A DNA stretch of 64,000 nucleotides from a candidate division FCPU426 bacterium (lineage in GTDB: Bacteria > Oederibacteriota > Muellerivitia > Muellerivitales > Muellerivitaceae): contig CAWKAR010000029.1 of assembly GCA_963847625.1 (NCBI GenBank), positions 27,360-91,359 of the forward strand. Reading direction: 5' to 3'. Numbering within the stretch: the stretch's first letter is position 1; each line of letters opens with the position of its first letter. Under the pieces are notes generated by a model. The model was not told where the DNA came from. It ran no database searches and saw only the letters and a list, made by a program, of their open reading frames with translations. Shown one piece after another: positions 37,021 through 60,031 of the stretch. The position numbers and the translations under genes are program-made.

Positions 37021-37042
37021 AAGCTTCTTCCTTAAAGTGATA

Positions 37043-37057
37043 GTGATAATTTATCAC
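37043..37057. promoter_or_regulatory. Operator-like palindrome upstream of the REC-Fis gene
   Basis: Perfect GTGATAA-T-TTATCAC. Confidence 0.45.
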
Positions 37058-41640: not shown

Positions 41641-43053
41641 TTGAAACCCACCCTGTTAATTGTTGATGATGAGGAAAGCGTCCGGGATTCCCTCCGGTTG
41701 ATTCTGGGGGGGGATTACAACCTGGTTTTCGCCGTGGACGCCAAATCCACCCTCCAAATATTAAAAACCACGTCTTTTGACCTTTGCCTCCTGGATATCC
41801 TCCTGCCTGATGGTACCGGTACCGACCTCCTGCGCCAAATCAAGCGCCGGGATGAATCGTTGGAGGCCATCATGGTGACGGCCTTGCAAAGCGTGGACAC
41901 GGCTTTGGAAACCATGAAACTCGGGGCTTACGATTACGTCACCAAGCCTTTCCAAGTGAATGATCTCCTGGAAAAAATAAAAAGTGTCTTGAATAAGAGG
42001 GACATCAAGAGGGGATACCGCTTTTTAAAAGGGGAAAGTCATCCCCAAACACCCGCGAGCCTCACCGGCGACAGCAAGGCGATCCAGGAAGTCCGGTGTC
42101 GAATCCTGGAAATGGCCGGAACCGACACGCCCGTCCTGATCCGGGGGGAAATAGGGAGCGGAAACGAGGATGCGGCCTGGGAAATTCACCGGCTAAGCCC
42201 GAGGAAAAACGGCTCTTTTGTCACCATCCCCTGCGGGGCCTTGTCAAAAGAACGGTTGAACGTCGAATTATACGGGCGGGAAGCGAAGGGTAATAGTGAT
42301 AAACCGGGCCAAATCGGGAAACTGGAGTTCGCCGAGAAAGGGACCCTCTTCCTGGAAAAAGTAGAGCGCCTCCCCCTGGAAACCCAGGAGGAACTGGCAA
42401 AAGTTTTTGTGGAAAGAAAAATCAACCGAGGAAAAAGGCGAGGGGCGATTTCCCTGGATTTCAGGGTCATCGCTTCCTGTGAAATGGATTTGGCTCCCGA
42501 GGTGGATGCCGGCCGGTTTAGCAGGGATTTTTACCGATTTATAAGTTCCTCGACCCTCAGGGTGCCGCCCCTCAGGGAACGCCGCGAGGACATCCCGGGG
42601 TTGATCGCCCATTTCCTGGAAGCTGCCAACCAAAAAGTCAATTTACCGGTCAAGAGCATTCACACTGACGCCGTTCAATTTTTAATGGATTACGACTGGC
42701 CCGGAAACTTGAGGGAACTGGAAAGCAGCATCGAGACCATGACAGTTTTCGCCGGCAAGGAGAATTTGGACCTCGAGGATGTTCCCTTGGCCATCCTCTC
42801 GAAGCGGATTGAACTGACGAAATCAAAGGCCCAAGCGAAGATTTCACTCTGGAAAGTCCGCCGCCAGTTTGAGCGCCAATATATCCGCAAAGTCTTGGAG
42901 CGTACCAGGGGCAACCAGACCCGGACCGCCGTTGCCCTGGGACTCCACCGCAACACCCTCCTTTGGAAGTTGAAGGAACTGGATTTGGAGAAGGAATACC
43001 AAAATATCGTCAAAAAACGGCGGGAAAGCGGTGTTGGTTTCAGGGATTTATAA
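41641..43053 (+). CDS. NtrC/AtoC-like response regulator with degenerate AAA+ domain
   Basis: REC (VDDE, LLD, GAYDYVTKPF), WPGNLREL, Fis HTH (GNQTRTAVALGLHRNTL); Walker A GEIGSGNE, no GAFTGA, Walker B FLEKVE. Confidence 0.9.
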   Translation: MKPTLLIVDDEESVRDSLRLILGGDYNLVFAVDAKSTLQILKTTSFDLCLLDILLPDGTGTDLLRQIKRRDESLEAIMVTALQSVDTALETMKLGAYDYVTKPFQVNDLLEKIKSVLNKRDIKRGYRFLKGESHPQTPASLTGDSKAIQEVRCRILEMAGTDTPVLIRGEIGSGNEDAAWEIHRLSPRKNGSFVTIPCGALSKERLNVELYGREAKGNSDKPGQIGKLEFAEKGTLFLEKVERLPLETQEELAKVFVERKINRGKRRGAISLDFRVIASCEMDLAPEVDAGRFSRDFYRFISSSTLRVPPLRERREDIPGLIAHFLEAANQKVNLPVKSIHTDAVQFLMDYDWPGNLRELESSIETMTVFAGKENLDLEDVPLAILSKRIELTKSKAQAKISLWKVRRQFERQYIRKVLERTRGNQTRTAVALGLHRNTLLWKLKELDLEKEYQNIVKKRRESGVGFRDL

Positions 43054-43280
43054 GCCCTAAATTCACAAGGAATTTTCTTTTCCCCGAAGCTGGATGGGGA
43101 AAATATATTTCATCGGCCATCCGGCGATCGATTCGTAAACACAGGCGCTTGCCCCGATATTTATTTTGGCCTTCAAACGTTCCATACAGAACGCCCCTTA
43201 TATCGAAGTATTTAAAACCAATATGCCGGGGCCTTTTACTTCCTCAAAAATTGATTTGGGAATCTTTTAGGAGTCATTAG

Positions 43281-44501
43281 ATGAAAAAAGTCGCGGTCAC
43301 CGGCCTTGGCGTGATCTGCCCCTTGGGGGGCGATGTGGCATCGTCCTGGGACGCCATGGTCAAGGGCCAGGTCGGGACCGGAAGGCTCCAGCTGATGGAC
43401 CCAACCCCCTACCGGGTGAAAATCGGGGGGGAAATCAAGGACCGGGGGGGCCTGGAAGCCTTCGAAAAAAAATACCCCGGCCGGTACGAGCGGGCCTCGG
43501 TCTTGGCCATCCTCGCCACGCGGGAGGCGTTGGAGAACGCCGGCTTGACCCCCGCCGGTCTTGAAGACCTCCGAGCCGGGAGTTTTTTCGGCACGACCAT
43601 GGGCGAGGTCCAGTTGGCGGAGCGGTTGTCCGAATTGAGCACGCAAAACAGGTTGGACGAGATAAAACCCGAAAGCTTCCACAAGGTCCAGGGTTCAAGA
43701 ATTGCCTTTTCGGTGCTGGATGATTTGGGAATCGGCGGACAAACCATGGTTTTTTCCAACGCCTGCGCGTCCGGCAACTACGCCATCGGCTGGGGTTTTG
43801 AGCAGATCCGGCAGGGAAACCTGGACCTGGTCCTCTGCGGCGGTGTCGATCCCTTTTCCAGGATCGCCTTTACCGGCTTCAACCGGCTCCTCTCCTTGAC
43901 GCCGGACCTGTGCCGGCCTTTCTCCAAGAACCGCAAGGGCCTGGTAGTGAGCGAGGGGGCCGGCGTCCTGGTTTTGGAGGAGATGGAAAGGGCCCGCTCG
44001 CGCGGTGCCCATGTCTATTGCGAGGTCGGCGGCTACGGCCTCGGGATGGACGCTTACCACATGACCTCCCCCCATCCGGAAGGCACCGGCGCTCATGAAA
44101 GCATCCTGAGGGCCCTGGACCAGGCCCGGCTCTCTCCTAGCGAGGTGGATTACATCTCGGCCCACGGCACCGGGACTCCCGCCAACGACAAGACGGAATC
44201 CATCGCCATTAAGAAGGCCATCGGCAAGGATCGTGTGATCCCCGTCAGCTCCATCAAATCCATGATCGGACACACCATGGGGGCCGCAAGCGCTATCGAG
44301 GCGGCCATGACCTGCCTGTCCCTGGACCGCGGGGTTTTGCTGCCCACCATGAACTGGGAGGTCCCCGATGAGGACTGCGTTTCGGATTGCGTGCCCAACC
44401 AATCCAGGCCGTTCAAGGGGAAGGTCGCCCTCTCCAATTCATTCGCTTTCGGCGGGAACACTTCCTGCCTGGTCCTGATAAAGAGGGAGCCCGCCCCATG
44501 A
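43281..44501 (+). CDS. Beta-ketoacyl-ACP synthase (FabF-like KS)
   Basis: Cys-His-His triad: NACASG, SAHGTGT, IGHTMGA; SNSFAFGG. Confidence 0.95.
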   Translation: MKKVAVTGLGVICPLGGDVASSWDAMVKGQVGTGRLQLMDPTPYRVKIGGEIKDRGGLEAFEKKYPGRYERASVLAILATREALENAGLTPAGLEDLRAGSFFGTTMGEVQLAERLSELSTQNRLDEIKPESFHKVQGSRIAFSVLDDLGIGGQTMVFSNACASGNYAIGWGFEQIRQGNLDLVLCGGVDPFSRIAFTGFNRLLSLTPDLCRPFSKNRKGLVVSEGAGVLVLEEMERARSRGAHVYCEVGGYGLGMDAYHMTSPHPEGTGAHESILRALDQARLSPSEVDYISAHGTGTPANDKTESIAIKKAIGKDRVIPVSSIKSMIGHTMGAASAIEAAMTCLSLDRGVLLPTMNWEVPDEDCVSDCVPNQSRPFKGKVALSNSFAFGGNTSCLVLIKREPAP

Positions 44502-45400
44502 AACCCCTGTTCGTCCACCGAAAAGGCGAGGCCATCCTGGGCTGGGACGGATTGGCCCTGGAAAAGGTGCCCCAGGCGTTTCAAGGGCTGTACCCCAATG
44601 AATCGCCGAAATATATCGACAGCCTATCCTTATTGGCGGCCATCGCCGCGGGACGGGCCTTGGAAGGGTCCGCGCTATTGAGCCGGAAGGAACTGCGCGA
44701 AAACTTCGGGGTGGTTTTGGGGAACGGGTTCGGGGCCATCGCTAGTTCGCTGGATTTCGACCGCCAAGCCCTCCTCAAGGGCCCCAACACCGTCAACCCC
44801 ATGGATTTTCCCAACACCGTGGCCAACGCGGCCGGAAGCCGCATCGGGATCTGGCTCCAGCTTAAGGGGCCGAATGTGACCCTTACCAACGGGGGCACTT
44901 CCTTCATCGACGCGATCGGGTTCGCTTGGGAGGGTTACAACGCGGGGCTTTTCCAATGTTGCTTAACCGGGGCGGTGGAAAAAGTTCCCGCCACCCTCAA
45001 ACACTTGGTAACATCTGCGCCGACGGCGATGGATTTAAGGGAAGGTGCGTGCCTTTTGCTGGCATCCGGCGATAATAACGGGGAAAAATTGTTCGAGGTG
45101 ATGGACTATTTTTCCGTACAATTGAAACCGGTTTTAAGCCTCCCGAAATTGTCCTCCGGCCGTTGGGACCAATTGTGGGAGGGCGCACAATGGTTGGGAT
45201 TTCCGGGGGATACGCCCCTGGAGCCCCTTTTTCCGGGGAATATCGTTCGTTTCACGCCGAATCCATCGGTGATGGAACTGGGATTAGGCGGTTTGGGGTG
45301 CTTGAGCGCGTTTCTGTCGGCGCCCCCAACGCAAGGGGTGATCGGGGCCTATTCAAGTATGGAAAGAAAAATATCTTTAATAAAAATAAAAAGAAATTAA
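44498..45400 (+). CDS. KS-like protein without catalytic residues (chain-length-factor-like)
   Basis: VNPMDFPNTVANAAGSRIGI, GPNVTLTNGGTS (no Cys), no HGTGT; ATGA overlap with KS stop. Confidence 0.8.
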   Translation: MKPLFVHRKGEAILGWDGLALEKVPQAFQGLYPNESPKYIDSLSLLAAIAAGRALEGSALLSRKELRENFGVVLGNGFGAIASSLDFDRQALLKGPNTVNPMDFPNTVANAAGSRIGIWLQLKGPNVTLTNGGTSFIDAIGFAWEGYNAGLFQCCLTGAVEKVPATLKHLVTSAPTAMDLREGACLLLASGDNNGEKLFEVMDYFSVQLKPVLSLPKLSSGRWDQLWEGAQWLGFPGDTPLEPLFPGNIVRFTPNPSVMELGLGGLGCLSAFLSAPPTQGVIGAYSSMERKISLIKIKRN

Positions 45401-45413
45401 GGAGCCGTTAAAA

Positions 45414-45659
45414 ATGGAAACCTCCGAGATCAAATCGAGAATCAAGGGAATCATCGCGGGCATGTTCGACGTCCAGCCGGGGGACATTCCCGACGCGAAA
45501 CCATTTCCTGAAATCTCGAAATACGATTCCATGAGGGCCTTGGAGTTCCTGGCCAAGTTGGAGACTGAGTTCAATGTCACCATCGATCCGGACCAACTCT
45601 ATACTATGACATCGGTGGAAAAGACAGTGGATGTCATCCAAAGCATGGTCAAGGCCTGA
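45414..45659 (+). CDS. Acyl carrier protein
   Basis: 81 aa, acidic, YDSM phosphopantetheinylation site, LETEFNVTI. Confidence 0.92.
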   Translation: METSEIKSRIKGIIAGMFDVQPGDIPDAKPFPEISKYDSMRALEFLAKLETEFNVTIDPDQLYTMTSVEKTVDVIQSMVKA

Positions 45660-45660
45660 A

Positions 45661-46110
45661 ATGGAAACGCCCTCCGAGATTCATGTTCAAACTTTGTTAA
45701 AACAACGCTTTCCCTTTGTGATGGTGGATAAGGTCCTTTCTTGGGCGAAGTGGCGGGAACTCAAGGCGGTGAAGTATGTCACATTCAACGAGCCCCATTT
45801 TCAGGGCCATTTTCCGGGATTCCCAATTTTCCCGGGAGTCTTGACGATCGAATGTTTCGCCCAAGCCTCCGCCCTCCTGATCGGCCTTTCCCGGGATGAG
45901 CCCTTGGCCCCGGGTTTATTCGACGCCATCGGAACGGTCATGGATTTCCGCTTGGAAAAACCCATTTTCCCCGGCGACCGTTTGGAAAGCCACGTGAAAA
46001 TCGTCAAGATGGCGGGCTCGAACCGGATTTTGGAAGGAAAGATGTATGTGGATCAAGAGATAGTCGCGACTGGAAAAATGATATTTGGGGAAATCAGATT
46101 GCCGAAATGA
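45661..46110 (+). CDS. 3-hydroxyacyl-ACP dehydratase (FabZ-like)
   Basis: QRFPFVMVDKV, NEPHFQGHFP, PGVLTIECFAQ (His/Glu kept). Confidence 0.9.
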   Translation: METPSEIHVQTLLKQRFPFVMVDKVLSWAKWRELKAVKYVTFNEPHFQGHFPGFPIFPGVLTIECFAQASALLIGLSRDEPLAPGLFDAIGTVMDFRLEKPIFPGDRLESHVKIVKMAGSNRILEGKMYVDQEIVATGKMIFGEIRLPK

Positions 46111-46146
46111 CTCAAGGTGCTGAAAACCGTTGAAACAGGATGCAAG

Positions 46147-46866
46147 ATGAAAAAAATCGTTATCTCCGGCGGCTCTTCGGGAATCGGCAAGAGCCTGGTG
46201 GAAACCTTTGCGGGAAAGGGTTGGAAAACCCACTTCACCTATCACTCCAATGAGGCTTCGGCCCGCGAACTGGAACGGCGGTTCGAGGGAAAAACCAAAG
46301 CCCACCGGTTGGATGTCACGGACCGCGAGGCCTGTGATCAATTCTGTAAGAGCGTCCTGAAAGAGGAAGGAAGCGTTGACGTGTTGGTCAATAACGCGGG
46401 CATCACGAAGGACAAGCCCTTGTTCGCGATGCAGGATTCGGATTGGTCGGACGTCTTGAACACGAACCTTTCCGGGGTTTTTTACCTGACCCGCAGTTTC
46501 GTGCTGGACATGCTGAAAAAGAAGAAAGGCCGGGTGATCAACCTCTCCTCCATCTCGGGCATCCACGGCCTTCCGGGACAAACCAACTATTCCGCCACCA
46601 AGGCCGGGATCATCGGCTTCACCAAGGCCTTGGCCAAGGAAGCCGGCCCCTACGGCGTCATAGCCAATGTGGTGGCTCCCGGAGGGGTTGCGACCCCCAT
46701 GATCGAGAAAATGACCCCCCAGGCCAAGGAGGCGCTTCTCCAGGCAGTGCCTCTCAAACGATTTTGCGAGCCTGAGGAAGTCGCGCGGGTGGTGTTTTTC
46801 CTGGCGGAGGAAGCCCCGGATTACATGAACGGCAGTGTCCTGGTCCTGGATGGCGGGGCAGGGTGA
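46147..46866 (+). CDS. 3-oxoacyl-ACP reductase (FabG-like)
   Basis: SGGSSGIG, NNAGITKD, GQTNYSATKAG, VAPG, DGG. Confidence 0.93.
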   Translation: MKKIVISGGSSGIGKSLVETFAGKGWKTHFTYHSNEASARELERRFEGKTKAHRLDVTDREACDQFCKSVLKEEGSVDVLVNNAGITKDKPLFAMQDSDWSDVLNTNLSGVFYLTRSFVLDMLKKKKGRVINLSSISGIHGLPGQTNYSATKAGIIGFTKALAKEAGPYGVIANVVAPGGVATPMIEKMTPQAKEALLQAVPLKRFCEPEEVARVVFFLAEEAPDYMNGSVLVLDGGAG

Positions 46867-46873
46867 ATAGAAT

Positions 46874-47635
46874 ATGATTGAACAGATTCAGCCGATCCAA
46901 GCCGATGAAATCCATATCCACCTTCTCAAGAATGATTCCGGGCGTATGCCTGGTCCGGCCACCCATTTCCTGCCTTTCCTCACCCCCGATGAACGCGATC
47001 AATACCTGCGTTTCGGATCGGATAGCCGGCGCCGGGAGTTTTTATTGTCCCGATTGCTGGTGCGTTCACTTCTGGCAGGTTATTTGAATAGGGATATGAA
47101 TGGTTTGAAATTCAGCTACTGTGACCGGGGAAAACCTTTCGTTGAGGGGGCGGAATTAAAGTTCAATCTTTCCCACACGGACGGCCTGATCGCTTGTTCC
47201 TTCGGCCGGCGCGAAGTCGGGATCGATGTGGAAAAAATGGATGCCCAAAAGCGGCCGAGTTGGCCCCTTTTGGCCAACCGTTATTTCTCCCCGGAAGAAA
47301 ATAATTATTTATTCTCCCAGCCCCAAGAAACCCAACCCTTGGCTTTTTTCAGGATTTTCACCGCGAAGGAGGCATTTGGGAAGGCCACGGGGCGGGGTAT
47401 CAACATCCGCTTAACTGATTTTACGGTTCCTATGCCGCCCGCGGATCGTACCTGGATAGGTCCATGGGAATTTTTCCAGGAAACATTTGGGCCGGTTGTT
47501 TATTGTTTGACCCATGTAGCGAAAAATCCCGGAAACGTCCCGCTTAAGTATGAAATCCATACCTGGGACGAGGAAGGTTTAATGGATTTCTTTAAGAACA
47601 GCGATGCTTTAGAGGCCTTGGGAGTTAAGCCGTAA
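46874..47635 (+). CDS. Sfp-type 4'-phosphopantetheinyl transferase
   Basis: GKP, FNLSHT, VGIDVE, FTAKEAFGKATGRG. Confidence 0.93.
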   Translation: MIEQIQPIQADEIHIHLLKNDSGRMPGPATHFLPFLTPDERDQYLRFGSDSRRREFLLSRLLVRSLLAGYLNRDMNGLKFSYCDRGKPFVEGAELKFNLSHTDGLIACSFGRREVGIDVEKMDAQKRPSWPLLANRYFSPEENNYLFSQPQETQPLAFFRIFTAKEAFGKATGRGINIRLTDFTVPMPPADRTWIGPWEFFQETFGPVVYCLTHVAKNPGNVPLKYEIHTWDEEGLMDFFKNSDALEALGVKP

Positions 47636-47657
47636 AATTGCAAAGGGAGTTATCGTC

Positions 47658-48422
47658 ATGAAGACATGTGGAAATACGGTTTTGATCACCGGGGGAGGGT
47701 CGGGAATTGGCCTGGCCTTGGCGATGGAATTTTTAATCCGCCAGAACACAGTTGTGGTTTGCGACCACAAGGCCCGGAGGCTTCTAGAAGCCAAAAAGTC
47801 AACTCCCGGTCTCCAAACCATTCATTGCGATGTCCGAAGCCCGGCGCAACGGAAAAGGCTGCTTGCCGCCGTGGTGAAAAAGTTCCCTAAGATCAATGTC
47901 CTGGTCAACAACGCCGCCGTGTCCCATTGGCAGGATTTCGTGGCACCCGAGCAAAACCAGGAGGCCCGTGTCCTTCAGCAAATCGAGACGAACCTGTTAG
48001 CCCCCATCGAATTGACCCGGCTCTTCCTACCGACCCTGCTCAAGCAGGATTTTGCCGCAGTCGTATATCTATCCTCGGGCCAGGCTTATGTTCCCCTTTC
48101 AAGAAAGGCCGTTTATGCGGCCACGAAGGCGGCCATTCATTCCTTTTCGCAATCGATCAGGTACCAGCTCAAGGACCGCCCGGTTTTTGTGATGGAGGCA
48201 TTGCCCTCTTGGGTGGACACGGACATGATCCGGGACCTGGCCATAAAAAAGATGCCGCCTGAAAAGGTAGCCAGGGAAATATTGGAGGGGCTGGAGGAAA
48301 ACAGGGAAGAGCTTCGGATTGGCTTGTCGGGCCTTTTATTTTACTTCAGCCGTTTGATGCCACGCATGATGTGGAAGAAATTCAACGATTACGCGCCAAC
48401 GCCTAAACTGGAAAAATTTTAA
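47658..48422 (+). CDS. Short-chain dehydrogenase/reductase (DltE-like)
   Basis: GNTVLITGGGSGIG, VNNAA, YAATKAAIHSF. Confidence 0.9.
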   Translation: MKTCGNTVLITGGGSGIGLALAMEFLIRQNTVVVCDHKARRLLEAKKSTPGLQTIHCDVRSPAQRKRLLAAVVKKFPKINVLVNNAAVSHWQDFVAPEQNQEARVLQQIETNLLAPIELTRLFLPTLLKQDFAAVVYLSSGQAYVPLSRKAVYAATKAAIHSFSQSIRYQLKDRPVFVMEALPSWVDTDMIRDLAIKKMPPEKVAREILEGLEENREELRIGLSGLLFYFSRLMPRMMWKKFNDYAPTPKLEKF

Positions 48423-48446
48423 CCCCTGTTCACGGAAAAAAGGCCC

Positions 48447-49988
48447 ATGGAAAAGACCCGACCATTCGATGCCATCGTCATCGGTTCCGGCATGGGCGGT
48501 TTGGCGGCCGCTTCCCTGCTGGCCCAGATGAAGCGTTACCGCGTGCTTGTTTTGGAAAGACATTTCAAGCTAGGGGGGTTCATCCAGTCCTTTCAACGGC
48601 CCGGCGGTTACCATTGGGACGTGGGGCTCCATTATGTGGGTGAGTTGGAGTCGAGAAGCCCCTACCGCCAGGCTATGGATTACATCACGGCTGGCCGGTT
48701 GAAATGGGTCAAAATGAAGGACCCCTTTGATGTCTTCCTCTACCCCGACTTGAGATTTGAGGTTCCCTCAGACCGCGCTGCTTATCTGCGAAAACTCCAG
48801 GACCTTTTTCCGGAGGAGTCCGGGCCCCTCCAGGATTATTTCATAGATATCATCCGGGTCCGTGAAATCCTGATTGGACGGTGGCTTCCATCCGCCCAAA
48901 TGCTGAAACGCGAGGAGGCATACCGCCAAAACCATGATTTGATTCGTCAAACCCTCCAAACCTACCTCCAGTCCCATTTTCGGGACAGCCGACTAAAAGG
49001 TCTATTGGCTTCGCAATGGGGTAATTACGGTCTGCCACCAAAATCGGCTAGTTTTGGGACCCATGCCGCCACGGTCCGGCATTATTTGGACGGGGGATAT
49101 TACCCTTCCGGCTCCTCTTCCGCCTTGGTGGACGTCCTTGCAGGAATTGTCCGGGAGGCGGGGGGCGAACTCAAGACCAGGCACCGAGTGATCCGCATCC
49201 TGGTCGGGGACCGGAAAGCCAGGGGGGTGGAGGTGGAGACTTTAGGGGGACGGGTCAGGTTCAATGCGCCGGAAATATACTCGGACGCGGGTGCGGAGGC
49301 GACCTACAACGGGCTTCTTCCGGAAGAAGCGCACGGACCCGAGATGCTGAAGGAACTTTCCAAGTCGCCGACCCATGGCGTCGTTGTCCTGTACCTTGGC
49401 TTGAAATCCGCCTGTGGATCTTTAGGCATCCACGGGCAAAATTTTTGGATCTACGAACATTACGACCATAACGCGATGTGGGAACAAAGAAATTCCCTTG
49501 CCGGGGGAAAAGCCTCTTATTGCTTCCTTTCCTTCCCCGGAATCAAGGACCCGGGAGCCAAAGCGCCCACGGCAGAAATCATCTCGGACCTCGACTACGA
49601 CGTTTTCCAACCATGGAGCAACACGGAGTGGATGAAACGCGGGCCGGAATATTCGGCCTTGAAGGCGAAAATCGCCGAAACGCTGTTGAATTTTGTAGAA
49701 TCTAGATTGCCGGGTTTCCGTGAGGAAGTGGCCTACGCCGAGCTGTCCACGCCGCTTACCGTCAAACATTTCACCGGTTACCGCGATGGGAACATTTATG
49801 GCTTTCCCGGCGTCCCCAGCCGGTACGAGTTGGAATGCTTTGAACCCAATACCCCCATCCGGGGTTTGAAACTCGTCGGGGTGGACGCGGGATCCTCGGG
49901 TATTTCCGGGGCGATGTTTGGCGGCCTTTTGGGCGTCGCGGCCCAGCATGGGAATGCCATTTTTCACGGACTGGCAAAAGGAAATTGA
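48447..49988 (+). CDS. FAD-dependent oxidoreductase (phytoene desaturase / retinol saturase family)
   Basis: IGSGMGG, LERH, WDVGLHYVG, GGYYP, STPLT, GNIYG, TPIRGL. Confidence 0.88.
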   Translation: MEKTRPFDAIVIGSGMGGLAAASLLAQMKRYRVLVLERHFKLGGFIQSFQRPGGYHWDVGLHYVGELESRSPYRQAMDYITAGRLKWVKMKDPFDVFLYPDLRFEVPSDRAAYLRKLQDLFPEESGPLQDYFIDIIRVREILIGRWLPSAQMLKREEAYRQNHDLIRQTLQTYLQSHFRDSRLKGLLASQWGNYGLPPKSASFGTHAATVRHYLDGGYYPSGSSSALVDVLAGIVREAGGELKTRHRVIRILVGDRKARGVEVETLGGRVRFNAPEIYSDAGAEATYNGLLPEEAHGPEMLKELSKSPTHGVVVLYLGLKSACGSLGIHGQNFWIYEHYDHNAMWEQRNSLAGGKASYCFLSFPGIKDPGAKAPTAEIISDLDYDVFQPWSNTEWMKRGPEYSALKAKIAETLLNFVESRLPGFREEVAYAELSTPLTVKHFTGYRDGNIYGFPGVPSRYELECFEPNTPIRGLKLVGVDAGSSGISGAMFGGLLGVAAQHGNAIFHGLAKGN

Positions 49989-50041
49989 AGGAAAAACTGT
50001 CTTCATCGGGCAGGAAAATTTAATCAGGGAATCGAGCGGTC

Positions 50042-51454
50042 ATGGCCGTGTCAACAAGTAAGGACATGTTTATTGTTTGCCGGAACAGCCAGGGAACGGA
50101 GTTCCGCGCTACGCTGCTCCGGTTGATGCAGTATACGGTCGTTTTCGAGGTCTACAATCCCTATAGCATCATCCAATTGGGGGAGGTCCTGATCGATTTC
50201 AAGATGATCCTGAATGACCGTATGGTTTATTCCGGAAAGGCGGTGGTCAGCAATTTGGTGAATACGGGAATCCTTCTTGTCTGCGAATGCACCTTGGAGG
50301 AAAGCTGGTTGGACGTGAACGCTTTCGCCTCTATCCACAAGGAGGAAAGGCTCCGGGAGGAGTTCCTGGGGTTCTTGAGGGATTGGGAGAAATTCCATCA
50401 AATCGACGATAAGCTCAAGGTGGCGGTGGCTGATTTGCAGACCTTCCTCTTGGATGTCCGGCGTTGGCTGGAACAGGTGGAATTGGGCATCTGCTCCGAC
50501 CCTTCCGGGGAGAAAAGCCGGATGGAAATGGACGTCATCCTGAAATTGAGGAGTTCAATGTCTCCCGCCATAGACAAGCTTTTCCAACGTTTCGAGAAAA
50601 CGGCCGCCTGCATTCCCGAGGAATTCCGGGCCATCCACTGGTCTTACAGCAAGCAGCAGCTTCATCCCCTCATGCTATGCTCGCCGTTTGTCTACCGGGT
50701 TTACCATAAACCCCTGGGTTACGCGGGTGATTACGAAATGATTAACATGATGCTGAGGGACCCTTACGAGGGTGCGTCCCTTTTTGCCAAGATATTGAAC
50801 ATTCACTTCCTGGATACGTCGCCCTGCCGGGCGCATCGGAACCGCATCAAGACTTTGACGAGGAATTTGAGAGAGGAGGCGGGACGTGTATTGAAGGAAA
50901 AAGCGGAATTCCGAATCATCAACATGGGCTGTGGGCCCGCCAAGGAAATCCAGGACTTTCTCGCCGAAGAGGATCTGAGCGACCGCTCGAATTTTGTCCT
51001 GATGGACTTTAACGACGAGACTTTGGAATATGTTGAAAAAACCTTGGAGGATATAAAAAGAAAGCACCGCCGGGGGGCTCGGATCCGAATGGTCAAAAAA
51101 TCGGTCCATCAAATCTTGAAGGAATCCTTCAAGGCTCCCGACCCTCGGGAAATGAATTGCGATTTCATCTATTGCGCCGGGTTGTTTGATTACCTGGAGG
51201 ATAGGATCTGCAAAAGATTGATGGAATATTTTTACGGCCTGCTGTCACCCGGTGGGTTATTGCTTGCCACCAACGTGACCCCCAATAATCCCATCCGAAA
51301 TATCCTGGAAAGCCTCCTGGAGTGGCCGATGGTTTACCGGAACGCAGAACAAATGGCGGCCCTCATTCCTAACTCGGTGGGGAAAGATTCTTGTAAAATC
51401 TATACTGAGGAAACCGGTGTCAATATTTTCGTGGAAGTGAGAAAAGCCGGATGA
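50042..51454 (+). CDS. phcB: PhcB-like SAM-dependent methyltransferase (fatty-acid methyl ester signal synthase family)
   Basis: RNSQG...VFEVYNPYSIIQL...YSGKAVVSNL N-terminal block recalled from PhcB homologs, KPLGYAGDYEM, AHRNRI, MGCGPA SAM motif, YCAGLFDYL; followed by HK and REC-HK genes as in phcBSR. Confidence 0.85.
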   Translation: MAVSTSKDMFIVCRNSQGTEFRATLLRLMQYTVVFEVYNPYSIIQLGEVLIDFKMILNDRMVYSGKAVVSNLVNTGILLVCECTLEESWLDVNAFASIHKEERLREEFLGFLRDWEKFHQIDDKLKVAVADLQTFLLDVRRWLEQVELGICSDPSGEKSRMEMDVILKLRSSMSPAIDKLFQRFEKTAACIPEEFRAIHWSYSKQQLHPLMLCSPFVYRVYHKPLGYAGDYEMINMMLRDPYEGASLFAKILNIHFLDTSPCRAHRNRIKTLTRNLREEAGRVLKEKAEFRIINMGCGPAKEIQDFLAEEDLSDRSNFVLMDFNDETLEYVEKTLEDIKRKHRRGARIRMVKKSVHQILKESFKAPDPREMNCDFIYCAGLFDYLEDRICKRLMEYFYGLLSPGGLLLATNVTPNNPIRNILESLLEWPMVYRNAEQMAALIPNSVGKDSCKIYTEETGVNIFVEVRKAG

Positions 51455-54090
51455 ACAAGGACCTGCTCAACCAACCTGAAATGAAGAAGCTGTTCGCCGA
51501 GTATAACAGCCGCGAATGGGTGCGTTTGTTCAAGGTGGCATGTTGGGTTTGCGCGATCGCCATGCCTTCCGCGATTTTCCTGGACATGATCGACTATCCG
51601 AAATATGTCGCTTATTTCTTCGAACTCCGGATGGTTTGCGCGGCCCTGGCGTTGGTTCTTTTGGGGGTGGTTTATACCCCCTGGGGGCCGCGCCACCAGT
51701 ACATCTTAACCCTGTTCCTGGCCATCATCCCCCAGGGTTTCGTTTGTTGGATGATCTACATTACCGATGGCGCCGTTTCACCTTATTACCAAATCCTGAA
51801 CCTGCCATTGCTCATTTACTGCCTCTTGTTCCCTTGGACCTACTTGGCTACCTTCAGCCTCTCCATCATCACCATTGTTTTTTACTTAACTGCGTGTTTC
51901 GCGCATGGCGGGATATCGGAAGGCGGGTTATTCCTCAGCAACATCATCTTTCTACTTTATACCGTTTCTTTCGCCGTGATCGGGAGCTATTTCACCAATG
52001 GCCTCCGCGCCCGGGAATTCATTTCCCAGTTCGAGCTGGACCAAAGCCGGAAAAAATTGGAGGAATCCAACCAAAAACTCATCGAAATGGACCTGGCGAA
52101 AAACCGCTTCTTCGCCAACATCAGCCATGAGTTGAGGACGCCCCTGACGCTGCTCCTTTCCCCCCTGGAATCGCTCCGGACGGCGAAATCCAGCCACATG
52201 GACGATGAAACTAGGAATGTCCTTGGCCTCATGTACAACAACGCCATGAGGCTTTTGAAGCTCATCAACGACTTGTTGGACCTAGTCAAGCTGGAATCCG
52301 GACGAATGGAAGTGCGCAAGGGGCCCCTCAAGGTGGAGGAATTCATCAAGGGGCTGGTCCTTTCGGTTCACCCGGCGGCGAGGGATAAAAGGATCATCCT
52401 TTCATCCTCCGTAGGCGAGGGGTTGGGGACCCTCCTGGCCGACCAGGACAAGCTGGAAAAGATCACCCTGAACCTGCTTTTTAATTCCTTGAAATTCACC
52501 CCGGCGGGGGGCCGGATCGAGCTTTCCGCGAACGCCGAGGGCCCGTACCTGGTGTTGAAAGTGAAGGACACGGGCATGGGCATCTCGGAGATGGACCTGC
52601 CGCGCATTTTCGACCGGTTTTGGCAGGTCGACACCTCCTCCCGGCGCAAGTACCAGGGCACGGGAATCGGTTTGGCCTTGGTGAAGGAGCTCGCCGAAGC
52701 CATGGGCGGCTCCATCGCCGCCGAAAGCCAGATGAATAAAGGCACGGCCATTACAGTAAAAATTCCCCTCGAACGGCCGAAAGAAGAAGCGGTCAACCTG
52801 CCGGATGTTTCTTCCGCGGCCGGACCCGCCGGGGAAAAGAACGAATCCCCGGAATGGCTCGCGAGCCTCTATCGCCGGGCCGAGCTTTTCCCGGCCATTA
52901 CCCTCCTCTCGGAAAACATCCGCCGGGACGATTACGGCTCGGGAAAACCAAAAATCCTGGTCGCGGACGACGAGCCAGACATGCTCCGTTACCTGAAATC
53001 CCAGTTGGAGAGGGAATTCACGGTCCTGGAGGCCGTCGATGGGAACCAGGCCGTGGAAAAAACCCGCCAGTTCCTGCCGGACCTGGTTTTACTGGACATG
53101 ATGATGCCGGGTAAGGACGGCGTGCAAGCCTGCCGCGAGATCAAATCCACGGTTTCCACCCAGGCCATCCCCGTGATCCTCCTGACCGCCCGTGCCGACG
53201 AGGAAACCCGAATCGCGTCCCTCGACGCGGGGGCGAACGACTTCCTGACCAAACCCTTCTCGGCCACGGAATTGCACATCAGGGTCCGCAACCTGGTCCA
53301 ATCGCACCATTACCAAAAGGATTTGGCTTTCGAAAAAAGTGCACTGGAATCGACCCTCGAGCAGTTGAAGGAGACCGAGGGGCAATTGGTGCAAAACGAG
53401 AAAATGGCTTCCCTCGGCCGGTTGAGTGCCGGTATCATCCATGAGATCAACAACCCCTTGAACTACTCGGTGGCGGCCCTGCGCCTGTTGCGCGCGCGCA
53501 AGGACCAGCTTCCGGAGGGGGACCGGGCCAAATACGAGGAGACCCTCTCCGACATCGAGGAAGGACTGGGGCGGGTCGCTGGGATCGTCTCGGACCTGCG
53601 CGCCTTCAGCCACCCCAAATCGGGGGGGTTGGACTTGATCGGGCTGGAAGAGGTCGCGTCAATTTCCCTGCGGTTCTTGAACCATGAGTTGGCGGGCAAG
53701 GTCAAGGTCGAGGTCGGGGTGCCAAAAACCCAGAAAGTCCTGGCCGACAAGAACAAGCTGACCCACGTTTTCATCAACCTGCTTCAGAATTCGCTCGATG
53801 CGTTCAAACAAAAGACCTTTGACGGGGAGATGCCGGCGATCTCGATCAAGAGCCGGCAGGTGGATGGAAAAGTCCTGGTGGACGTGCGGGACAACGGCTC
53901 CGGGATCGATGAGCGGTTCCTGGGCAAGGTTTTCGACCCCTTTTTCACCACCAAGGACGTGGGGGAAGGGATGGGATTGGGTTTGAGCATCTGCTACCAG
54001 GCCATGCGGGACCAGGGCGGGAGAATCACGGCCGCGGGCGAGAAGGGGAAGTACGCGCAATTCACATTGGAGCTCCAGGCGGGGGCATAG
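51451..54090 (+). CDS. phcS: PhcS-like membrane hybrid sensor kinase: TM-HisKA-HATPase-REC-HisKA-HATPase
   Basis: About 5-6 TMs, SHELRTPL, NSLKFT/GTGIGL, ADDE/LLDMMMP, IHEINNPL, FFTTK/GMGLGL; ATGA overlap with phcB. Confidence 0.8.
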   Translation: MNKDLLNQPEMKKLFAEYNSREWVRLFKVACWVCAIAMPSAIFLDMIDYPKYVAYFFELRMVCAALALVLLGVVYTPWGPRHQYILTLFLAIIPQGFVCWMIYITDGAVSPYYQILNLPLLIYCLLFPWTYLATFSLSIITIVFYLTACFAHGGISEGGLFLSNIIFLLYTVSFAVIGSYFTNGLRAREFISQFELDQSRKKLEESNQKLIEMDLAKNRFFANISHELRTPLTLLLSPLESLRTAKSSHMDDETRNVLGLMYNNAMRLLKLINDLLDLVKLESGRMEVRKGPLKVEEFIKGLVLSVHPAARDKRIILSSSVGEGLGTLLADQDKLEKITLNLLFNSLKFTPAGGRIELSANAEGPYLVLKVKDTGMGISEMDLPRIFDRFWQVDTSSRRKYQGTGIGLALVKELAEAMGGSIAAESQMNKGTAITVKIPLERPKEEAVNLPDVSSAAGPAGEKNESPEWLASLYRRAELFPAITLLSENIRRDDYGSGKPKILVADDEPDMLRYLKSQLEREFTVLEAVDGNQAVEKTRQFLPDLVLLDMMMPGKDGVQACREIKSTVSTQAIPVILLTARADEETRIASLDAGANDFLTKPFSATELHIRVRNLVQSHHYQKDLAFEKSALESTLEQLKETEGQLVQNEKMASLGRLSAGIIHEINNPLNYSVAALRLLRARKDQLPEGDRAKYEETLSDIEEGLGRVAGIVSDLRAFSHPKSGGLDLIGLEEVASISLRFLNHELAGKVKVEVGVPKTQKVLADKNKLTHVFINLLQNSLDAFKQKTFDGEMPAISIKSRQVDGKVLVDVRDNGSGIDERFLGKVFDPFFTTKDVGEGMGLGLSICYQAMRDQGGRITAAGEKGKYAQFTLELQAGA

Positions 54091-54117
54091 CAGGATCAAA
54101 AATCGAGGGAGACGGCC

Positions 54118-55380
54118 ATGGATCATTTTTATGATTACAAGAAATTCTTCGTCCTGTACGTGGACGACGAGGAAAAATCCCTGAAATATTTCCGTGAAAC
54201 CTTCGGCGAGAAATTCTCCATTCTCACCGCCCTCAACGCGGTGGACGGGTACCGAATCCTGCAGGAAAACATGGGGGTGACGGCCGTCCTGATGACCGAC
54301 CAGCGCATGCCAGGCGAGAAGGGAACCCAGTTCCTGGAGCGGGCGCGCCAGTTGAACCCGCGCGTCCTGCGCGTCCTCATCACCGCCTATTCGGACCTGG
54401 ATACGGCCATCGAGGCCGTCAACTTGGGCGCCATCTATAAATACGTCACGAAACCCTGGGACATTCCCCAACTGGAGGTCACCTTGAAGCGGGGGATCGA
54501 GTTTTTCATCGTCCAGAACGAGCGGGACCAGCTTCTGCGCGAAAAAATGTCCACCCTCTACAACGTCATGTTGACCGACCGGATCTTGAGCCTGGGGCTA
54601 TTGGCCACCGGCTTGAGCCACCACATCCGCAATTCCCTGGTGGCGGTCAAGACCTTCCTGGACCTGGCACCCAAGAAGCTGAGCGAGGAAAACCTGGACC
54701 TGGACCAGCTGAGGAACCCCGATTTTTGGAAGGAATACTACAAGAAAGTCCAGGGCCAGATGGACAAGGTGGCCGGGCTCCTGGACGACCTTTGGGAGTC
54801 CTCCGAGCGGCCGAATACCGAGTTCCCCGACCAGGTCAAGGTGCACCAGGTGCTGGGGGAGGCCCTCGCGCTGGCCCAGCCCGAGTTGAAAAAGAACGGC
54901 ATCGCCGTGGACAACCTGGTTCCGGCGACACTTCCCGAGCTGAGGGTGGACAAGAAAAAATTCACGCGGTTGTTCGAGCTCCTGCTCCGGGAGGAGGCCG
55001 CGGCCTTGCCGGCCGGGAGCCGGGTGAAATTCAACGCCCAGACCACGGGGACCAAGGTGGTGCCGGGGGAGTTCCAGATCGAGATGGAGGACAACGGGCC
55101 GGCCTTGACCCAGCCTGCCTTGAGGTCGCTGTTCGACCCATTTTTCATGCGATCCAACAACCCCCAGGAATTCGGGCTTTACCTCATGACCTGCTTTTTC
55201 ATCGTCTACCACCACGGCGGCAGGGTCTTGGCCAGCCGGGATGAGAAACGGGGGAACATCGTGACCATGACTTTTCCCCTGAATCCCCAAGCGCAGGTTT
55301 CCCCGACCGATCAGAAGGATTTCATCAGTAAAATCCTGATCAATGAAACCATGTGGGAGAGATTGTTGGCGGAAGGCTGA
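54118..55380 (+). CDS. phcR: PhcR-like response regulator: receiver plus degenerate kinase-like output
   Basis: YVDDE, TDQRMP, KPW; LSHHIRNSL H box; HATPase without N-box Asn and with QEFGLYL in place of GxGLGL. Confidence 0.8.
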   Translation: MDHFYDYKKFFVLYVDDEEKSLKYFRETFGEKFSILTALNAVDGYRILQENMGVTAVLMTDQRMPGEKGTQFLERARQLNPRVLRVLITAYSDLDTAIEAVNLGAIYKYVTKPWDIPQLEVTLKRGIEFFIVQNERDQLLREKMSTLYNVMLTDRILSLGLLATGLSHHIRNSLVAVKTFLDLAPKKLSEENLDLDQLRNPDFWKEYYKKVQGQMDKVAGLLDDLWESSERPNTEFPDQVKVHQVLGEALALAQPELKKNGIAVDNLVPATLPELRVDKKKFTRLFELLLREEAAALPAGSRVKFNAQTTGTKVVPGEFQIEMEDNGPALTQPALRSLFDPFFMRSNNPQEFGLYLMTCFFIVYHHGGRVLASRDEKRGNIVTMTFPLNPQAQVSPTDQKDFISKILINETMWERLLAEG

Positions 55381-55496: not shown

Positions 55497-55883
55497 TCAT
55501 TTCCTGGGAATGGCCTTTTCCAAGATGTCCCGGATTTTCGCCTTCAATCCCGCCATGGGGACGGGTTTCGCGAAAAAAGCCAGGATGTTGAATCCCTTCA
55601 GGTGGAAATCGTCCTCCAGCCCCTTGAACGCCGAAACCACGATGATGGGCAGGTCCGGGAATTCGGCGCGCACCCTCGGGACCATCTCGAACGCGTGCAT
55701 ATCGGGCATCTTGACGTCCGTCATGAGCAGGTCCACCTTCTGGTCCTCGAGGGTCCCCAGGACCTGGAGGCCGTTCTCGGCCGTGAGGACCTTGTATCCC
55801 TCTTCGGACAGCTCCTCCAGGTAAAGAAACAGGGAGGCTTTCTCATCCTCCGCCACCAGTATCGTGTAATCACTTGGATTCAT
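55497..55883 (-). CDS. Single-domain response regulator
   Basis: VAEDE, TDVKMP, VSA, AKP. Confidence 0.92.
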   Translation of the reverse strand: MNPSDYTILVAEDEKASLFLYLEELSEEGYKVLTAENGLQVLGTLEDQKVDLLMTDVKMPDMHAFEMVPRVRAEFPDLPIIVVSAFKGLEDDFHLKGFNILAFFAKPVPMAGLKAKIRDILEKAIPRK

Positions 55884-58518: not shown

Positions 58519-59253
58519 TTCAAAACCTCCTTGGTGCCGGATGGGCCTTTCACCCATTAAACGGTTACCCAGAACTGAAAATATCCCTCGAGTTCTAAAC
58601 CGAAATGCCGCGGGAAGATGGAATCGTTCGCGAAAAAGGAAGTCGCGTCGGGAAAAATTTGTCCTGCATCATACGGCGGGAGCATCCGCCGAAAAAAAGG
58701 CCTATCTGGATTTTACGGCTTATCCCAGGGAATACAAGCGAACCACCGCTTCCGGTCCGTCCTCGAAACTTGTCCGGCCGTAATTCGTGCAAAAAAATAT
58801 TTTGATATTGCCGCATAGCCCTGGAATTGTGCAAAAAATGGAATGACCGGGCTTGTGCGAGAATATTTTTCACGGCAACCGCGCAGCCTGAAACCGCCGG
58901 AGCATGGTTCTATTTGAAATCGCTGGCTAATTCCGGCCAGGGAATAATTGCCTAATTTCTGAAAATTTTTTTTCCAATAAATCGTTAAATCCCGGCGGGG
59001 AAAATAATTTGGGGATAAAATGTGAACAGGTGCTTTTTGACATTTATCCGGCGAATGCCTTCGCCGGATAAATGCAAGCGGGGTTCCCGCGGCTTCCGCC
59101 GCGGGGAAAACAATCAATTCAGAATGTTTCATTCTTCTCTTTCTCTCTTTCGAAAATCCGGTATCGGTTTCAGGATATAGCTGTCTTTAGCGGGCGCCAT
59201 GAGGGCTGCTGGGGGAGATGGCGGATAAGAACAACGCGGGGAAGGAGCCAAAC

Positions 59254-59670
59254 ATGGAAAATTTATCTTTCGCGACGCGTGAAATCACCGCCGGAAGCGG
59301 GATCATCATCCTGAGGGTGGAGGGGTCGCTGGATGTCAACACGGTCGTGCAGTTCGAGGCCAGGCTGCAGGAACTCGTGCTGGACAGGAAACTGAAAATC
59401 ATCGTCAACATGGAAAACCTTTCCTACATTTCAAGCGCAGGCATCGGGGTTTTGGTTTATTTCAACCAATTCCTCCGGAACAACCAAGGGAATATCATCC
59501 TGACCCATGTCAACAAGGCGACCCTCAGGATTTTCGAATTGTTGGAACTTCCCAGGATTTTCCAGCTTATGAATACCGAGCAGGACGCCTTGAACGAGTT
59601 CGAAGGGAACCGGAGGGCCTCCTCCCTGAGGCTGAACCCGGTGCGTTTGTTCGAGGGATCGAATGCTTGA
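59254..59670 (+). CDS. STAS-domain anti-sigma-factor antagonist
   Basis: VEGSLD, LSYISSAGIGVL phosphoserine motif; AAGGAG RBS. Confidence 0.9.
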   Translation: MENLSFATREITAGSGIIILRVEGSLDVNTVVQFEARLQELVLDRKLKIIVNMENLSYISSAGIGVLVYFNQFLRNNQGNIILTHVNKATLRIFELLELPRIFQLMNTEQDALNEFEGNRRASSLRLNPVRLFEGSNA

Positions 59671-60031
59671 AGCCAAGCTGTTCGTGGAAAACCGCGTCTA
59701 TCCCAGATTCCTGACGGAAATCCTTATCGGATACCGGGTGATCTCGGAGCGAAAAGAAATGGAGCGGGCCCTCCTCCAGCGAAAAAAAGAGACTGCCCTG
59801 ACCCAAGACATCAGCCTGGGGGGCCTGTACATCCTGGCGAACCACGGGTTAAAAGTGGGCCACGTCCTGCGCCTATATATTTCACTTTCCGACGGGTCGA
59901 ATATCATCGCGCCTATCGCCGAAGTGGTATGGACCAACGGAAAGGGCGGCGGCCTCCGGTTTATCTCCCTGTGCCAAGAGGAAAAAGAACAACTTAAGGG
60001 TTACTTGGAAAAAATGACCCGGCCCAGCTAG
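59663..60031 (+). CDS. PilZ-domain protein
   Basis: RVYPR (RxxxR), DISLGG (DxSxxG), AEVVW, GLRF. Confidence 0.9.
   Translation: MLEAKLFVENRVYPRFLTEILIGYRVISERKEMERALLQRKKETALTQDISLGGLYILANHGLKVGHVLRLYISLSDGSNIIAPIAEVVWTNGKGGGLRFISLCQEEKEQLKGYLEKMTRPS

Follow-up and report, generated by a model that had tools for sequence, protein, structure and literature searches.

Co-inheritance of a type II ketosynthase gene block with a Phc-type methyltransferase and sensor input domain in an uncultured bacterial lineage

Why would genes that resemble the maker and the sensor of a quorum-sensing signal share an apparent operon with genes for building an acyl chain? The question is raised by positions 43281–55380 of a 64,000-nucleotide stretch of DNA (the window) from a candidate division FCPU426 bacterium of the family Muellerivitaceae (GCA_963847625.1, contig CAWKAR010000029.1, positions 27,360 to 91,359). 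There, eleven genes encode a ketosynthase (KS), a chain-length-factor-like KS homolog (CLF), an acyl carrier protein (ACP), FabZ- and FabG-type enzymes, a 4'-phosphopantetheinyl transferase (PPTase), an SDR oxidoreductase, a CrtI-like flavoenzyme, a PhcB-family methyltransferase (MT), a hybrid sensor kinase (HK879), and a receiver and kinase-like protein (RR420). In Ralstonia, the acyl chain of the Phc signal comes from ordinary fatty-acid synthesis. Ralstonia PhcB makes methyl 3-hydroxy fatty acids, according to the accessible parts of two reports (PMC13320629, PMC8578825). An earlier note on this DNA knew of no dedicated synthase in a phc operon, and our literature searches also found none: searches on phcB homologs, Verrucomicrobia, ketosynthase and phcBSR distribution found only Ralstonia/Cupriavidus work and general reviews, and papers with both "phcB" and "ketosynthase" were reviews only, in one of which the two terms are unrelated in the accessible text.

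Comparison with related genomes showed that the synthase genes, PhcB and the membrane input domain of HK879 are inherited together and vary together. We think it rather probable that the locus is a Phc-type lipid-signal module that obtains its signal precursor from a private type II synthase. The earlier note had proposed a self-contained signalling module on an apparent island; the first part gained support, in that synthase, PhcB and sensor input domain are tied by comparative linkage as a co-inherited unit, and the island setting did not hold.

Results

The synthase block recurs beside phcB in one sublineage of the family

A survey of the neighbourhoods of phcB homologs, suggested in the earlier note as a check for KS/CLF-ACP linkage, showed that the linkage recurs. 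In 12 of 25 loci of the window's own family, KS-CLF-ACP-FabZ-FabG-PPTase lay directly upstream of phcB on the same strand, and the PhcBs of these loci are 62–92% identical to that of the window; three of the 12 linked contigs end inside the synthase block. This gene order was kept across seven genera, with all open reading frames (ORFs) intact. No block gene was present in the available sequence upstream of the other 13 family loci (PhcB 46–60% identical), which amounted to 9 kb in most and to 0.5–3.5 kb in G029, G008 and G012. Outside these genomes, metagenome contig L100 (PhcB 70% identical), which ends within the block, carries FabG-PPTase-SDR-CrtI upstream of phcB. Because the gene order recurs both in the 12 family loci and on L100, the arrangement is more than chance.

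The distribution of the CLF gene follows that of the linked phcB. It was found, as a single copy, in 13 of 31 family genomes, the very set that has a linked phcB; it lies at the phcB locus in twelve and on a separate contig in G030, where the phcB contig is cut. Other families gave only weak CLF matches in FabF-sized frames. Among 5.8 billion protein clusters, 67 were of this CLF type, each with 49% identity or more, and the next matches were FabF-like, at E 2e-14 or weaker. The phcB gene was present in 24 of 30 own-family genomes and in the one genome of a second family in the same order; 29 genomes that represent 13 further families of the phylum gave no match. When the window methyltransferase was used as the query, 5,535 of 8,000 scored candidates reached E ≤0.001, and the 120 matches listed were 55–92% identical. 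Twenty of the 36 best of these (60–92% identity) share a contig with a CLF match, as judged by the proxy of equal size of the longest contig, and none of the other 84 listed does so.

The two genes between the PPTase gene and phcB are less constant. The SDR gene is confined to the window, G001, G005, G006 and L100, and the CrtI-like gene is patchy, being present in the window, G001, G011, G030, G004 and L100 and also in G026. In G026 (locus L118), the CrtI-like gene is placed after phcB and before the kinase gene, and upstream of KS there are a sigma-54 regulator and a small kinase gene. We conclude that the synthase block is rare and that, as a direct phcB neighbour, it is restricted to a single sublineage within the window's family. 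Two deltaproteobacterial metagenome-assembled genome (MAG) loci, L033 and L043, have KS and ACP genes in the vicinity of phcB, with tRNA-synthetase or FadL genes in between, and were set aside as a lead.

PhcB and the sensor input domain vary with the block while the rest of the cassette follows the genus

The linked PhcBs formed one clade both in a FastTree phylogeny (support 100; 121 rows, 15 linked, with 6 short or interrupted rows omitted) and in a quick IQ-TREE phylogeny (SH-aLRT 99; 33 rows, 14 linked). The first 200 residues of the kinase, which include its transmembrane (TM) domain, likewise placed the linked rows in one clade (SH-aLRT 98; 24 rows, 11 linked). On the tree of the kinase cytoplasmic part together with RR420 (20 rows, 1,107 columns), the linked rows, a group set by KS presence before this tree was made, were scattered, with five changes, at least four of them forced by well-supported branches, and the AU test rejected their monophyly (lnL difference 344.6, p-AU 6.8e-9). 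The rows in these trees are relatives of each other and not independent samples. PhcB and the TM domain thus follow the block, and the kinase cytoplasmic part and RR420 follow the genus. Mean TM identity was 0.38 between the linked and unlinked types versus 0.54 and 0.44 within them; for the cytoplasmic domains, between-type identity fell between the two within-type values. The SDR gene shows a related pattern at a finer scale: its five carriers make up a single PhcB subclade, and the four for which kinase sequence was available constitute a single TM subclade (support 100).

Two pairs of genomes, each consisting of one linked and one unlinked member of the same genus, show where the cassette changes its affinity. 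Between G004 (linked) and G020 (unlinked), the PD-(D/E)XK-family gene in the upstream flank is 77% identical, the kinase cytoplasmic part 80% and RR420 88%, each the highest value of its column, and PhcB is 61% and the TM domain 45% identical. G004 PhcB is instead 72–82% identical to the linked PhcBs of most other genera and 64–68% to those of the window's own subclade. Between G006 (linked) and G029 (unlinked), the first kinase module (84%) and the internal receiver (91%) again gave the highest values, with PhcB at 59% and the TM domain at 42%. Sliding identity along the kinase rose in both pairs from 28–60% to 70–100% at approximately residue 180–200. Both pairs are therefore mosaic, with the breakpoint at the junction of the TM and cytoplasmic parts of the kinase.

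We read this as exchange of the synthase, PhcB and the sensor TM domain as a unit, which would constitute a maker-plus-reader specificity cassette, pherotype-like in its behaviour. The co-variation and the mosaics are the main evidence that the synthase makes the PhcB substrate and that the sensor reads the product.

Two PhcBs from elsewhere, L003 (Verrucomicrobiales) and L005 (Limisphaerales), nest in the window-family clade on the 121-row FastTree, and the 33-row IQ-TREE groups them with two outgroup rows; the FastTree placement could reflect gene transfer or mis-binning.

The block has the gene content of a reducing type II synthase

All eleven genes of the cluster are on the plus strand. 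The KS (43281–44501; 406 aa) has both ketoacyl-synthase domains and a Cys-His-His triad in the motifs NACASG, SAHGTGT and GHTMGA; it has approximately 44 near relatives at ≥70% identity, after which identity falls to ≤56%. The CLF (44498–45400; 300 aa) consists of an N-terminal KS domain only and has no catalytic Cys, a Gly (TNGGTS) aligning with the Cys of the KS. The ACP (45414–45659; 81 aa) carries its phosphopantetheine serine in a DSM motif. It is followed by a FabZ-type 3-hydroxyacyl-ACP dehydratase (45631–46110; NF000582 at 117.5 bits, cut-off 113), whose likely start is the Met at 45661, and by a FabG-type 3-oxoacyl-ACP reductase (46117–46866; NF009466 at 241 bits, cut-off 222; Y158xxxK), whose likely start is the ATG at 46147. 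Pfam and NCBIfam identify the next two products as an Sfp/HetI-type PPTase (46874–47635) and, confined to one subclade, an SDR oxidoreductase (47658–48422). The SDR gene and the gene for the CrtI/phytoene-desaturase-family flavoenzyme (48447–49988), for which every score was under the curated cut-offs, are accessory tailoring genes. With a KS and an adjacent Cys-less homolog, an ACP, a PPTase, a ketoreductase and a dehydratase, the block would on its sequence qualify as a highly reducing type II KS/CLF system.

Among solved structures, the best relative of the KS was 9s5h_B (370 bits versus 279 for Bacillus subtilis FabF), that of the CLF was 9s5h_C, and those of the ACP were 6kxf_C and then 9s5i_E; 6kxd_A and 6kxd_B were among the KS and CLF matches. 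We infer that 9s5h and 9s5i are the structures of a preprint on anammox bacteria, although the id is not in the preprint text. In its accessible part, that preprint describes how amxFabF2 and amxFabFmut of "Cluster I" form a heterodimer comparable in action to a KS/CLF pair, in a cluster that also has an ACP, FabZ and a phytoene-desaturase homolog, and it places PDB 6kxe with the ishigamide cluster (bioRxiv 10.64898/2026.05.19.726425). The ishigamide and anammox systems resemble the window in having an active KS with an adjacent inactive homolog, a dedicated ACP and FabZ-type dehydration, and the anammox cluster shares the phytoene-desaturase homolog as well. As differences, the window cluster has no radical SAM enzyme, and its CLF of 300 aa lacks the C-terminal domain of 9s5h_C (412 aa). 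We considered and rejected a special kinship to the anammox ladderane genes: the window KS is equally similar (45–56% identity) to those of many phyla, and its identity of approximately 50% to 9s5h_B is at the same level as that to KS from Bacillota, Acidobacteriota and others. The likeness to anammox is thus one of kind, not of descent.

The same gene content bears on a different function for the block. A KS/CLF pair with an ACP, a ketoreductase and a dehydratase but no enoyl reductase is a polyene-forming type II gene set, and the first ACP match (6kxf_C) and the 6kxd chains among the KS/CLF matches belong beside 6kxe, the structure tied to the ishigamide cluster. CrtI-family enzymes act on polyenes. 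The block could accordingly serve to make some other secondary product, a lipid or polyene acting as pigment, membrane lipid or antibiotic, over which the Phc-type system has only regulatory control, adjacency then reflecting co-regulation as in many quorum-sensing-controlled gene clusters, and PhcB would methylate an ordinary fatty-acid intermediate; that most PhcB cassettes have no synthase fits this. Of the alternatives, this one survives best, yet we consider it unlikely. Apart from the downstream PhcB, no release or transfer enzyme accompanies the block, and with neither a thioesterase nor an acyltransferase in it, PhcB would be the only candidate for product release. The CLF is never found apart from a linked-clade phcB in the 31 family genomes, and PhcB and the TM domain vary with the block and with the SDR gene while the remaining signalling genes do not. 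The position of the CrtI-like gene between phcB and the kinase gene in G026 we also count for the link between synthase and PhcB.

The cassette downstream of the block is homologous to a Burkholderiaceae cassette

The earlier labels of PhcB-, PhcS- and PhcR-like for the last three genes were borne out. The SAM-dependent methyltransferase (50042–51454; 470 aa) is a full-length member of the PhcB family, with a beta domain at the N terminus, then a long helical part and a Rossmann MT domain; over 98% of its length it shares 40.7% identity with a Paraburkholderia graminis cassette protein. In plasmid records, only 1 of 136 matches covers at least 80% of the PhcB query, namely the P. graminis protein encoded on pPHS1_P, where the MT gene is followed by genes for a 445-aa kinase, a 134-aa regulator and a 344-aa regulator. 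HK879 (51451–54090; 879 aa) has a TM N terminus followed by HisKA-HATPase, REC and a second HisKA-HATPase. Over its residues 19–439, which take in the TM region, it aligns at 27% identity (E 2e-37) with the 445-aa kinase of Paraburkholderia, so that the membrane domains are homologous, and the core of that kinase matches residues 622–875, the second kinase module, best (37% identity). RR420 (54118–55380; 420 aa) consists of REC, HisKA and HATPase domains, and its residues 12–220 (receiver plus linker) are 36% identical to the 344-aa regulator, the last of the Paraburkholderia cassette. All three window genes are thus homologous, by sequence comparison, to a Burkholderiaceae cassette of the phcBS(R)Q layout.

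The family is large and its composition is steady. With a PhcB profile as query, 1,465 representative clusters (50% identity) matched at E ≤1e-30 and 6,119 at E ≤0.001; with one genome counted per species, the family is present in at least 591 genomes, the best 80 loci being mostly Verrucomicrobiota MAGs. Matches at 55–70% identity are named "EF 3-hydroxypalmitic acid methyl ester biosynthesis protein" by JGI, and the nearest ESM Atlas clusters are 469-aa Pseudomonadota proteins. Where at least 2.7 kb of downstream sequence was available, an HK879-like gene followed phcB in 66 of 67 genome contigs, 9 of 10 metagenome contigs and 20 of 20 own-family loci, and where at least 4.3 kb was available, an RR420-like gene followed the kinase gene in 65 of 65, 4 of 6 and 17 of 17. 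The genes directly after the receiver-kinase gene vary and include a cytochrome P450 (G028), sigma-54 regulators (G013, G010) and small histidine kinases (G021, G025), as seen at loci L124, L128, L135, L122 and L123.

Conservation spans the entire PhcB protein, invariant columns running from R14 to E465 and including the N-terminal two thirds that are not methyltransferase. An AlphaFold model (pLDDT 85.9) shows a six-stranded beta domain at 9–85, a helical domain at 92–286 and the Rossmann MT at 290–467. Against solved structures, PhcB gave nothing below E 0.2 by sequence, and a Foldseek comparison of the model with the PDB gave only generic class I methyltransferases (best 3ocj, TM 0.41/0.62), with the N-terminal domain unmatched. 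PilZ Pfam matches occur on a share of the related ESM Atlas clusters; in the first 100 residues of the window PhcB, Pfam found no PilZ domain even at E 10. Some PhcB-family representatives of 590–796 aa have N-terminal extensions of 120–335 residues (P0136, P0214, P0236, P0239, P0250, P0257 and others).

A gene for a FadL/TodX-type outer-membrane channel (Pfam Toluene_X) adjoins the cassette in 50 of 127 loci, approximately 0.9–2.9 kb upstream of phcB in 41 of these, an adjacency that fits a hydrophobic ligand crossing the outer membrane. The channel gene is in most cases the immediate upstream neighbour, in the same or the divergent orientation, or else the immediate downstream one (e.g., L011:7981–9369, L085:15714–16931 and L033:4520–5824). 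In the window's family, no such gene was found next to the cassette, and the window's own genome gave only a marginal match elsewhere.

This last point, together with the form of the sensor, could speak for a private circuit of lipid homeostasis or the envelope in place of cell-to-cell signalling, in which the methylated lipid serves the cell's own membrane and the six-TM kinase monitors lipid or membrane state. The input domain of HK879 is wholly membrane-embedded, with approximately six hydrophobic helices within residues ~20–190 and short loops, and Pfam found no family in its first 200 residues; the cassette also has no DNA-binding output, RR420 being of PhcR-type architecture with no DNA-binding domain and no HTH in the Pfam scan. 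We regard such a circuit as improbable, more so than a separate polyene. Exchange of maker and sensor input in a pherotype-like manner is expected for discriminating signals and not for a housekeeping lipid, methyl esterification would remove charge and so favour diffusion, and the homologous Ralstonia system is, in the accessible parts of the reports, an established diffusible-signal system (PMC13320629, PMC8578825).

The cluster is a compact putative operon at a syntenic site

The eleven co-oriented ORFs described earlier are all present on the plus strand, and their labels agree with the domain content found by Pfam and NCBIfam. Both ATGA overlaps, at 44498–44501 (where the CLF start overlaps the KS stop) and at 51451–51454, are real, and the largest intergenic gap is 53 nt, the limit given before. 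From the ORF coordinates, the gaps at the other junctions are, in order, 13, ~1, 6, 7, 22, 24, 53 and 27 nt; the ~1-nt gap between ACP and FabZ becomes a 29-nt overlap if the longest FabZ start is used. No terminator-like site was found in the 49988–50042 gap between the CrtI-like gene and phcB, such scans being weak evidence. Among public sequencing runs, none of RNA was listed for this stretch, and DNA runs contained it only on contigs of small share.

Upstream of the cluster and outside the operon, an NtrC-type sigma-54 response regulator (REC, AAA+ and HTH_8 by Pfam; 41641–43053, plus strand) is a possible output regulator of the cassette. It is also found upstream of the cluster in the same-genus genome G001 (73% identical in amino acids, 77% in nucleotides), and a terminator-like hairpin lies 3' of it at 43078–43103. 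A scan for sigma-54 promoters (TGGCAC-N5-TTGC, ≤2 mismatches) gave 42 matches versus 58 expected, with none in the 43054–43280 gap, and scans for sigma-70 promoters (4 versus 8.1 expected) and terminators (31 versus 27.8) showed no enrichment, which is a weak kind of evidence.

The suggestion that the cluster sits on an island was not borne out. G001 matches the window at 43256–55359 with 85% nucleotide identity over 12,114 bp and has the same sigma-54 regulator and receiver gene upstream, and it does not contain the IS481-like, IS1380 and IS30 genes found in the window at 37.0–41.6 kb; these IS elements are strain-specific later arrivals beside the cluster. The flanks are shared by linked and unlinked loci. 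A PD-(D/E)XK-family gene is upstream of KS in the linked loci G005, G009, G006 and G004 and upstream of phcB in the unlinked G028, G003, G019 and G002, and is one gene further off in G012, and a HEAT-repeat gene on the opposite strand lies downstream of loci of both kinds. With phcB in most family genomes, as given above, linked and unlinked loci differ by insertion or deletion of the block at a shared syntenic position, and an island is not involved. The GC content of the cluster (0.50–0.59) is within that of the window (0.45–0.62). The idea that synthase and phcB became neighbours by a rearrangement accident on a mobile island, without functional link, draws on the IS30, IS1380, IS481-like and IS3-like transposase genes at 33–41 kb and 62–64 kb, but we dismiss it as extremely improbable given the syntenic cluster of G001 where the IS elements of 37.0–41.6 kb are missing, the order conserved with intact ORFs in 12 family genomes of seven genera, and the unexceptional GC content.

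Several further features of the surroundings were seen. The IS elements are dense at 33051–41204, with a full IS1380 copy at 33051–34427 and a shorter copy at 39008–40165 that is overlapped by an IS30 gene at 40059–41204; further transposase genes are HTH_38 (IS30-like) at 35109–36089, IS481-like at 37729–38676 and IS3-like at 62119–63912. The 15-mer TGGCACAGATTTGGC, with four exact copies (30789, 32413, 32639 and 60898) that lie on both strands and close to IS-rich stretches, probably belongs to a repeated end of a mobile element. STAS-domain and PilZ-domain genes (59218–60031) lie downstream of the cluster and follow it directly in the same-genus genome, where the PAS kinase gene found here at 55870–57609 (minus strand) is approximately 10 kb further on. 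SecA at 5399–8066 is split into three ORFs in three frames (5399–6349, 6313–7077 and 7098–8066), that is, by two frameshifts; because these hit an essential gene, assembly errors are more likely than a pseudogene, and they advise caution for other ORF calls in the assembly.

Discussion

The closest known system is the phc cassette of Ralstonia, in which a PhcB-family methyltransferase likewise stands first, ahead of a membrane sensor kinase and of receiver proteins that lack a DNA-binding domain; as far as the accessible parts of the reports go, PhcR there combines a receiver with a kinase domain and PhcQ is a receiver (PMC8578825, PMC13320629). The window differs in having a synthase block of six to eight genes inside the same operon, an extra HisKA-HATPase-REC unit between the TM domain and the kinase core when compared with PhcS-like kinases, and one receiver-kinase protein in place of PhcR and PhcQ. 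Unlike in the Ralstonia system, no LysR-type (PhcA-like) gene was seen among the window ORFs scanned.

In their pattern of variation, the family loci resemble the peptide pherotype loci comQXP of Bacillus and agrBDCA of Staphylococcus. In these as in the window's family, the signal-making genes and the sensor membrane input are polymorphic and co-varying, the cytoplasmic part of the sensor and the regulator follow the species tree, and breakpoints fall inside the kinase gene. The pherotype loci use peptides, whereas the window signal would be a lipid-derived methyl ester, and the differences among loci of the window's family extend to whether an entire synthase block, or a tailoring gene, is there at all. 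A third group of systems comprises the alpha-hydroxyketone systems CqsA/CqsS (Vibrio) and LqsA/LqsS (Legionella) and the DSF system RpfF/RpfC, in which the enzyme for a hydrophobic signal derived from fatty acyl chains is encoded beside a multi-pass membrane kinase that binds the signal within the membrane, as is proposed for the window. Their enzymes, a PLP-dependent acyltransferase type and a crotonase, are unrelated to PhcB, and we know of none of these systems with a dedicated KS/CLF-ACP synthase.

Several points weigh against a private synthase that supplies a Phc-type signal. With at least 4.4 kb of upstream sequence, a KS (≥60% identity) was found upstream of phcB in only 1 of 57 genome-contig loci and 0 of 7 metagenome loci, and the single case, L004, is the same contig as that of G011; since most cassettes are without a synthase, PhcB needs none. 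The core block has, by Pfam and NCBIfam, no acyltransferase, enoyl reductase or thioesterase, and no FabI/FabK/FabV-type match; the SDR (in one subclade) and the CrtI-like enzyme could reduce double bonds, and host FabI could act in trans. In the comparison with Burkholderiaceae, the Paraburkholderia graminis cassette stood in for Ralstonia PhcB, PhcS and PhcR. As few as five PhcB positions (83, 295, 363, 386 and 413) are fixed differently in the linked proteins. Of these, 295 immediately precedes the invariant CGPA loop, and 386 and 413 come after the invariant motifs AGLFDY and T410-N411, respectively; the linked-specific positions may line the substrate pocket. The full mosaic picture comes from two same-genus pairs, in one of which G029 has an upstream flank of 480 bp and a genome 84% complete, with no CLF found in it, and the groupings of relatives into genera and families are labels supplied with the genomes. 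Finally, contiguous DNA co-transfers anyway, so the co-variation could reflect physical linkage alone.

We nonetheless prefer a signal module with its own synthase, in which the synthase is tied to PhcB because, in the family genomes searched, the CLF occurs only alongside a linked phcB and no off-loading enzyme is encoded in the block. The acyl chain would be assembled by the KS/CLF pair together with the FabG-type reductase and the FabZ-type dehydratase on the dedicated ACP, which the cluster's own Sfp-type PPTase would prime; the CLF partner would set chain length, and primary fatty-acid synthesis would lend malonyl loading and, where it occurs, enoyl reduction. In the window variant, the SDR and the CrtI-like flavoenzyme may modify the chain. 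The PhcB-family methyltransferase would then convert the carboxyl group to a methyl ester, freeing a hydrophobic, diffusible molecule, which would be sensed by the membrane-embedded six-helix input domain of the 879-aa kinase; the signal would pass through the internal receiver and second kinase module of the kinase to RR420 and to an output, for which the sigma-54 neighbour is a possibility. We infer all of the chemical steps, the diffusibility of the product and its use in cell-density signalling.

A broader proposal is more tentative, and we give it a somewhat lesser chance than the module itself: Phc-type methyl-ester signalling may be widespread beyond Burkholderiaceae and, in one uncultured lineage, may have evolved pherotypes, in which a KS/CLF synthase with swappable tailoring genes would write a polyketide-like chain, PhcB would esterify it and a matching TM domain would read it, the cassette moving from species to species through recombination within the kinase gene.

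In the literature that we found, work on Phc signalling does not reach beyond Ralstonia and close relatives. That the PhcB/kinase/receiver cassette is so broadly distributed, in many cases next to a FadL-type channel gene, suggests frequent use of lipid methyl esters as signals in Verrucomicrobiota and in other phyla that have been little studied. If the window's cassette indeed has its own chain-building enzymes, this would add a new means of producing and diversifying quorum-sensing signals, and the gene set of approximately 8 kb at 43281–51454 would be an expressible route to a new class of signal molecules from carriers of the synthase-linked cassette that are not yet growable. The mosaic pattern is a natural experiment in which maker genes and sensor input switch together, and it predicts which sensor reads which product. 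The exchange of synthase, PhcB and the membrane part of the sensor between related species points to a family of custom lipid signals.

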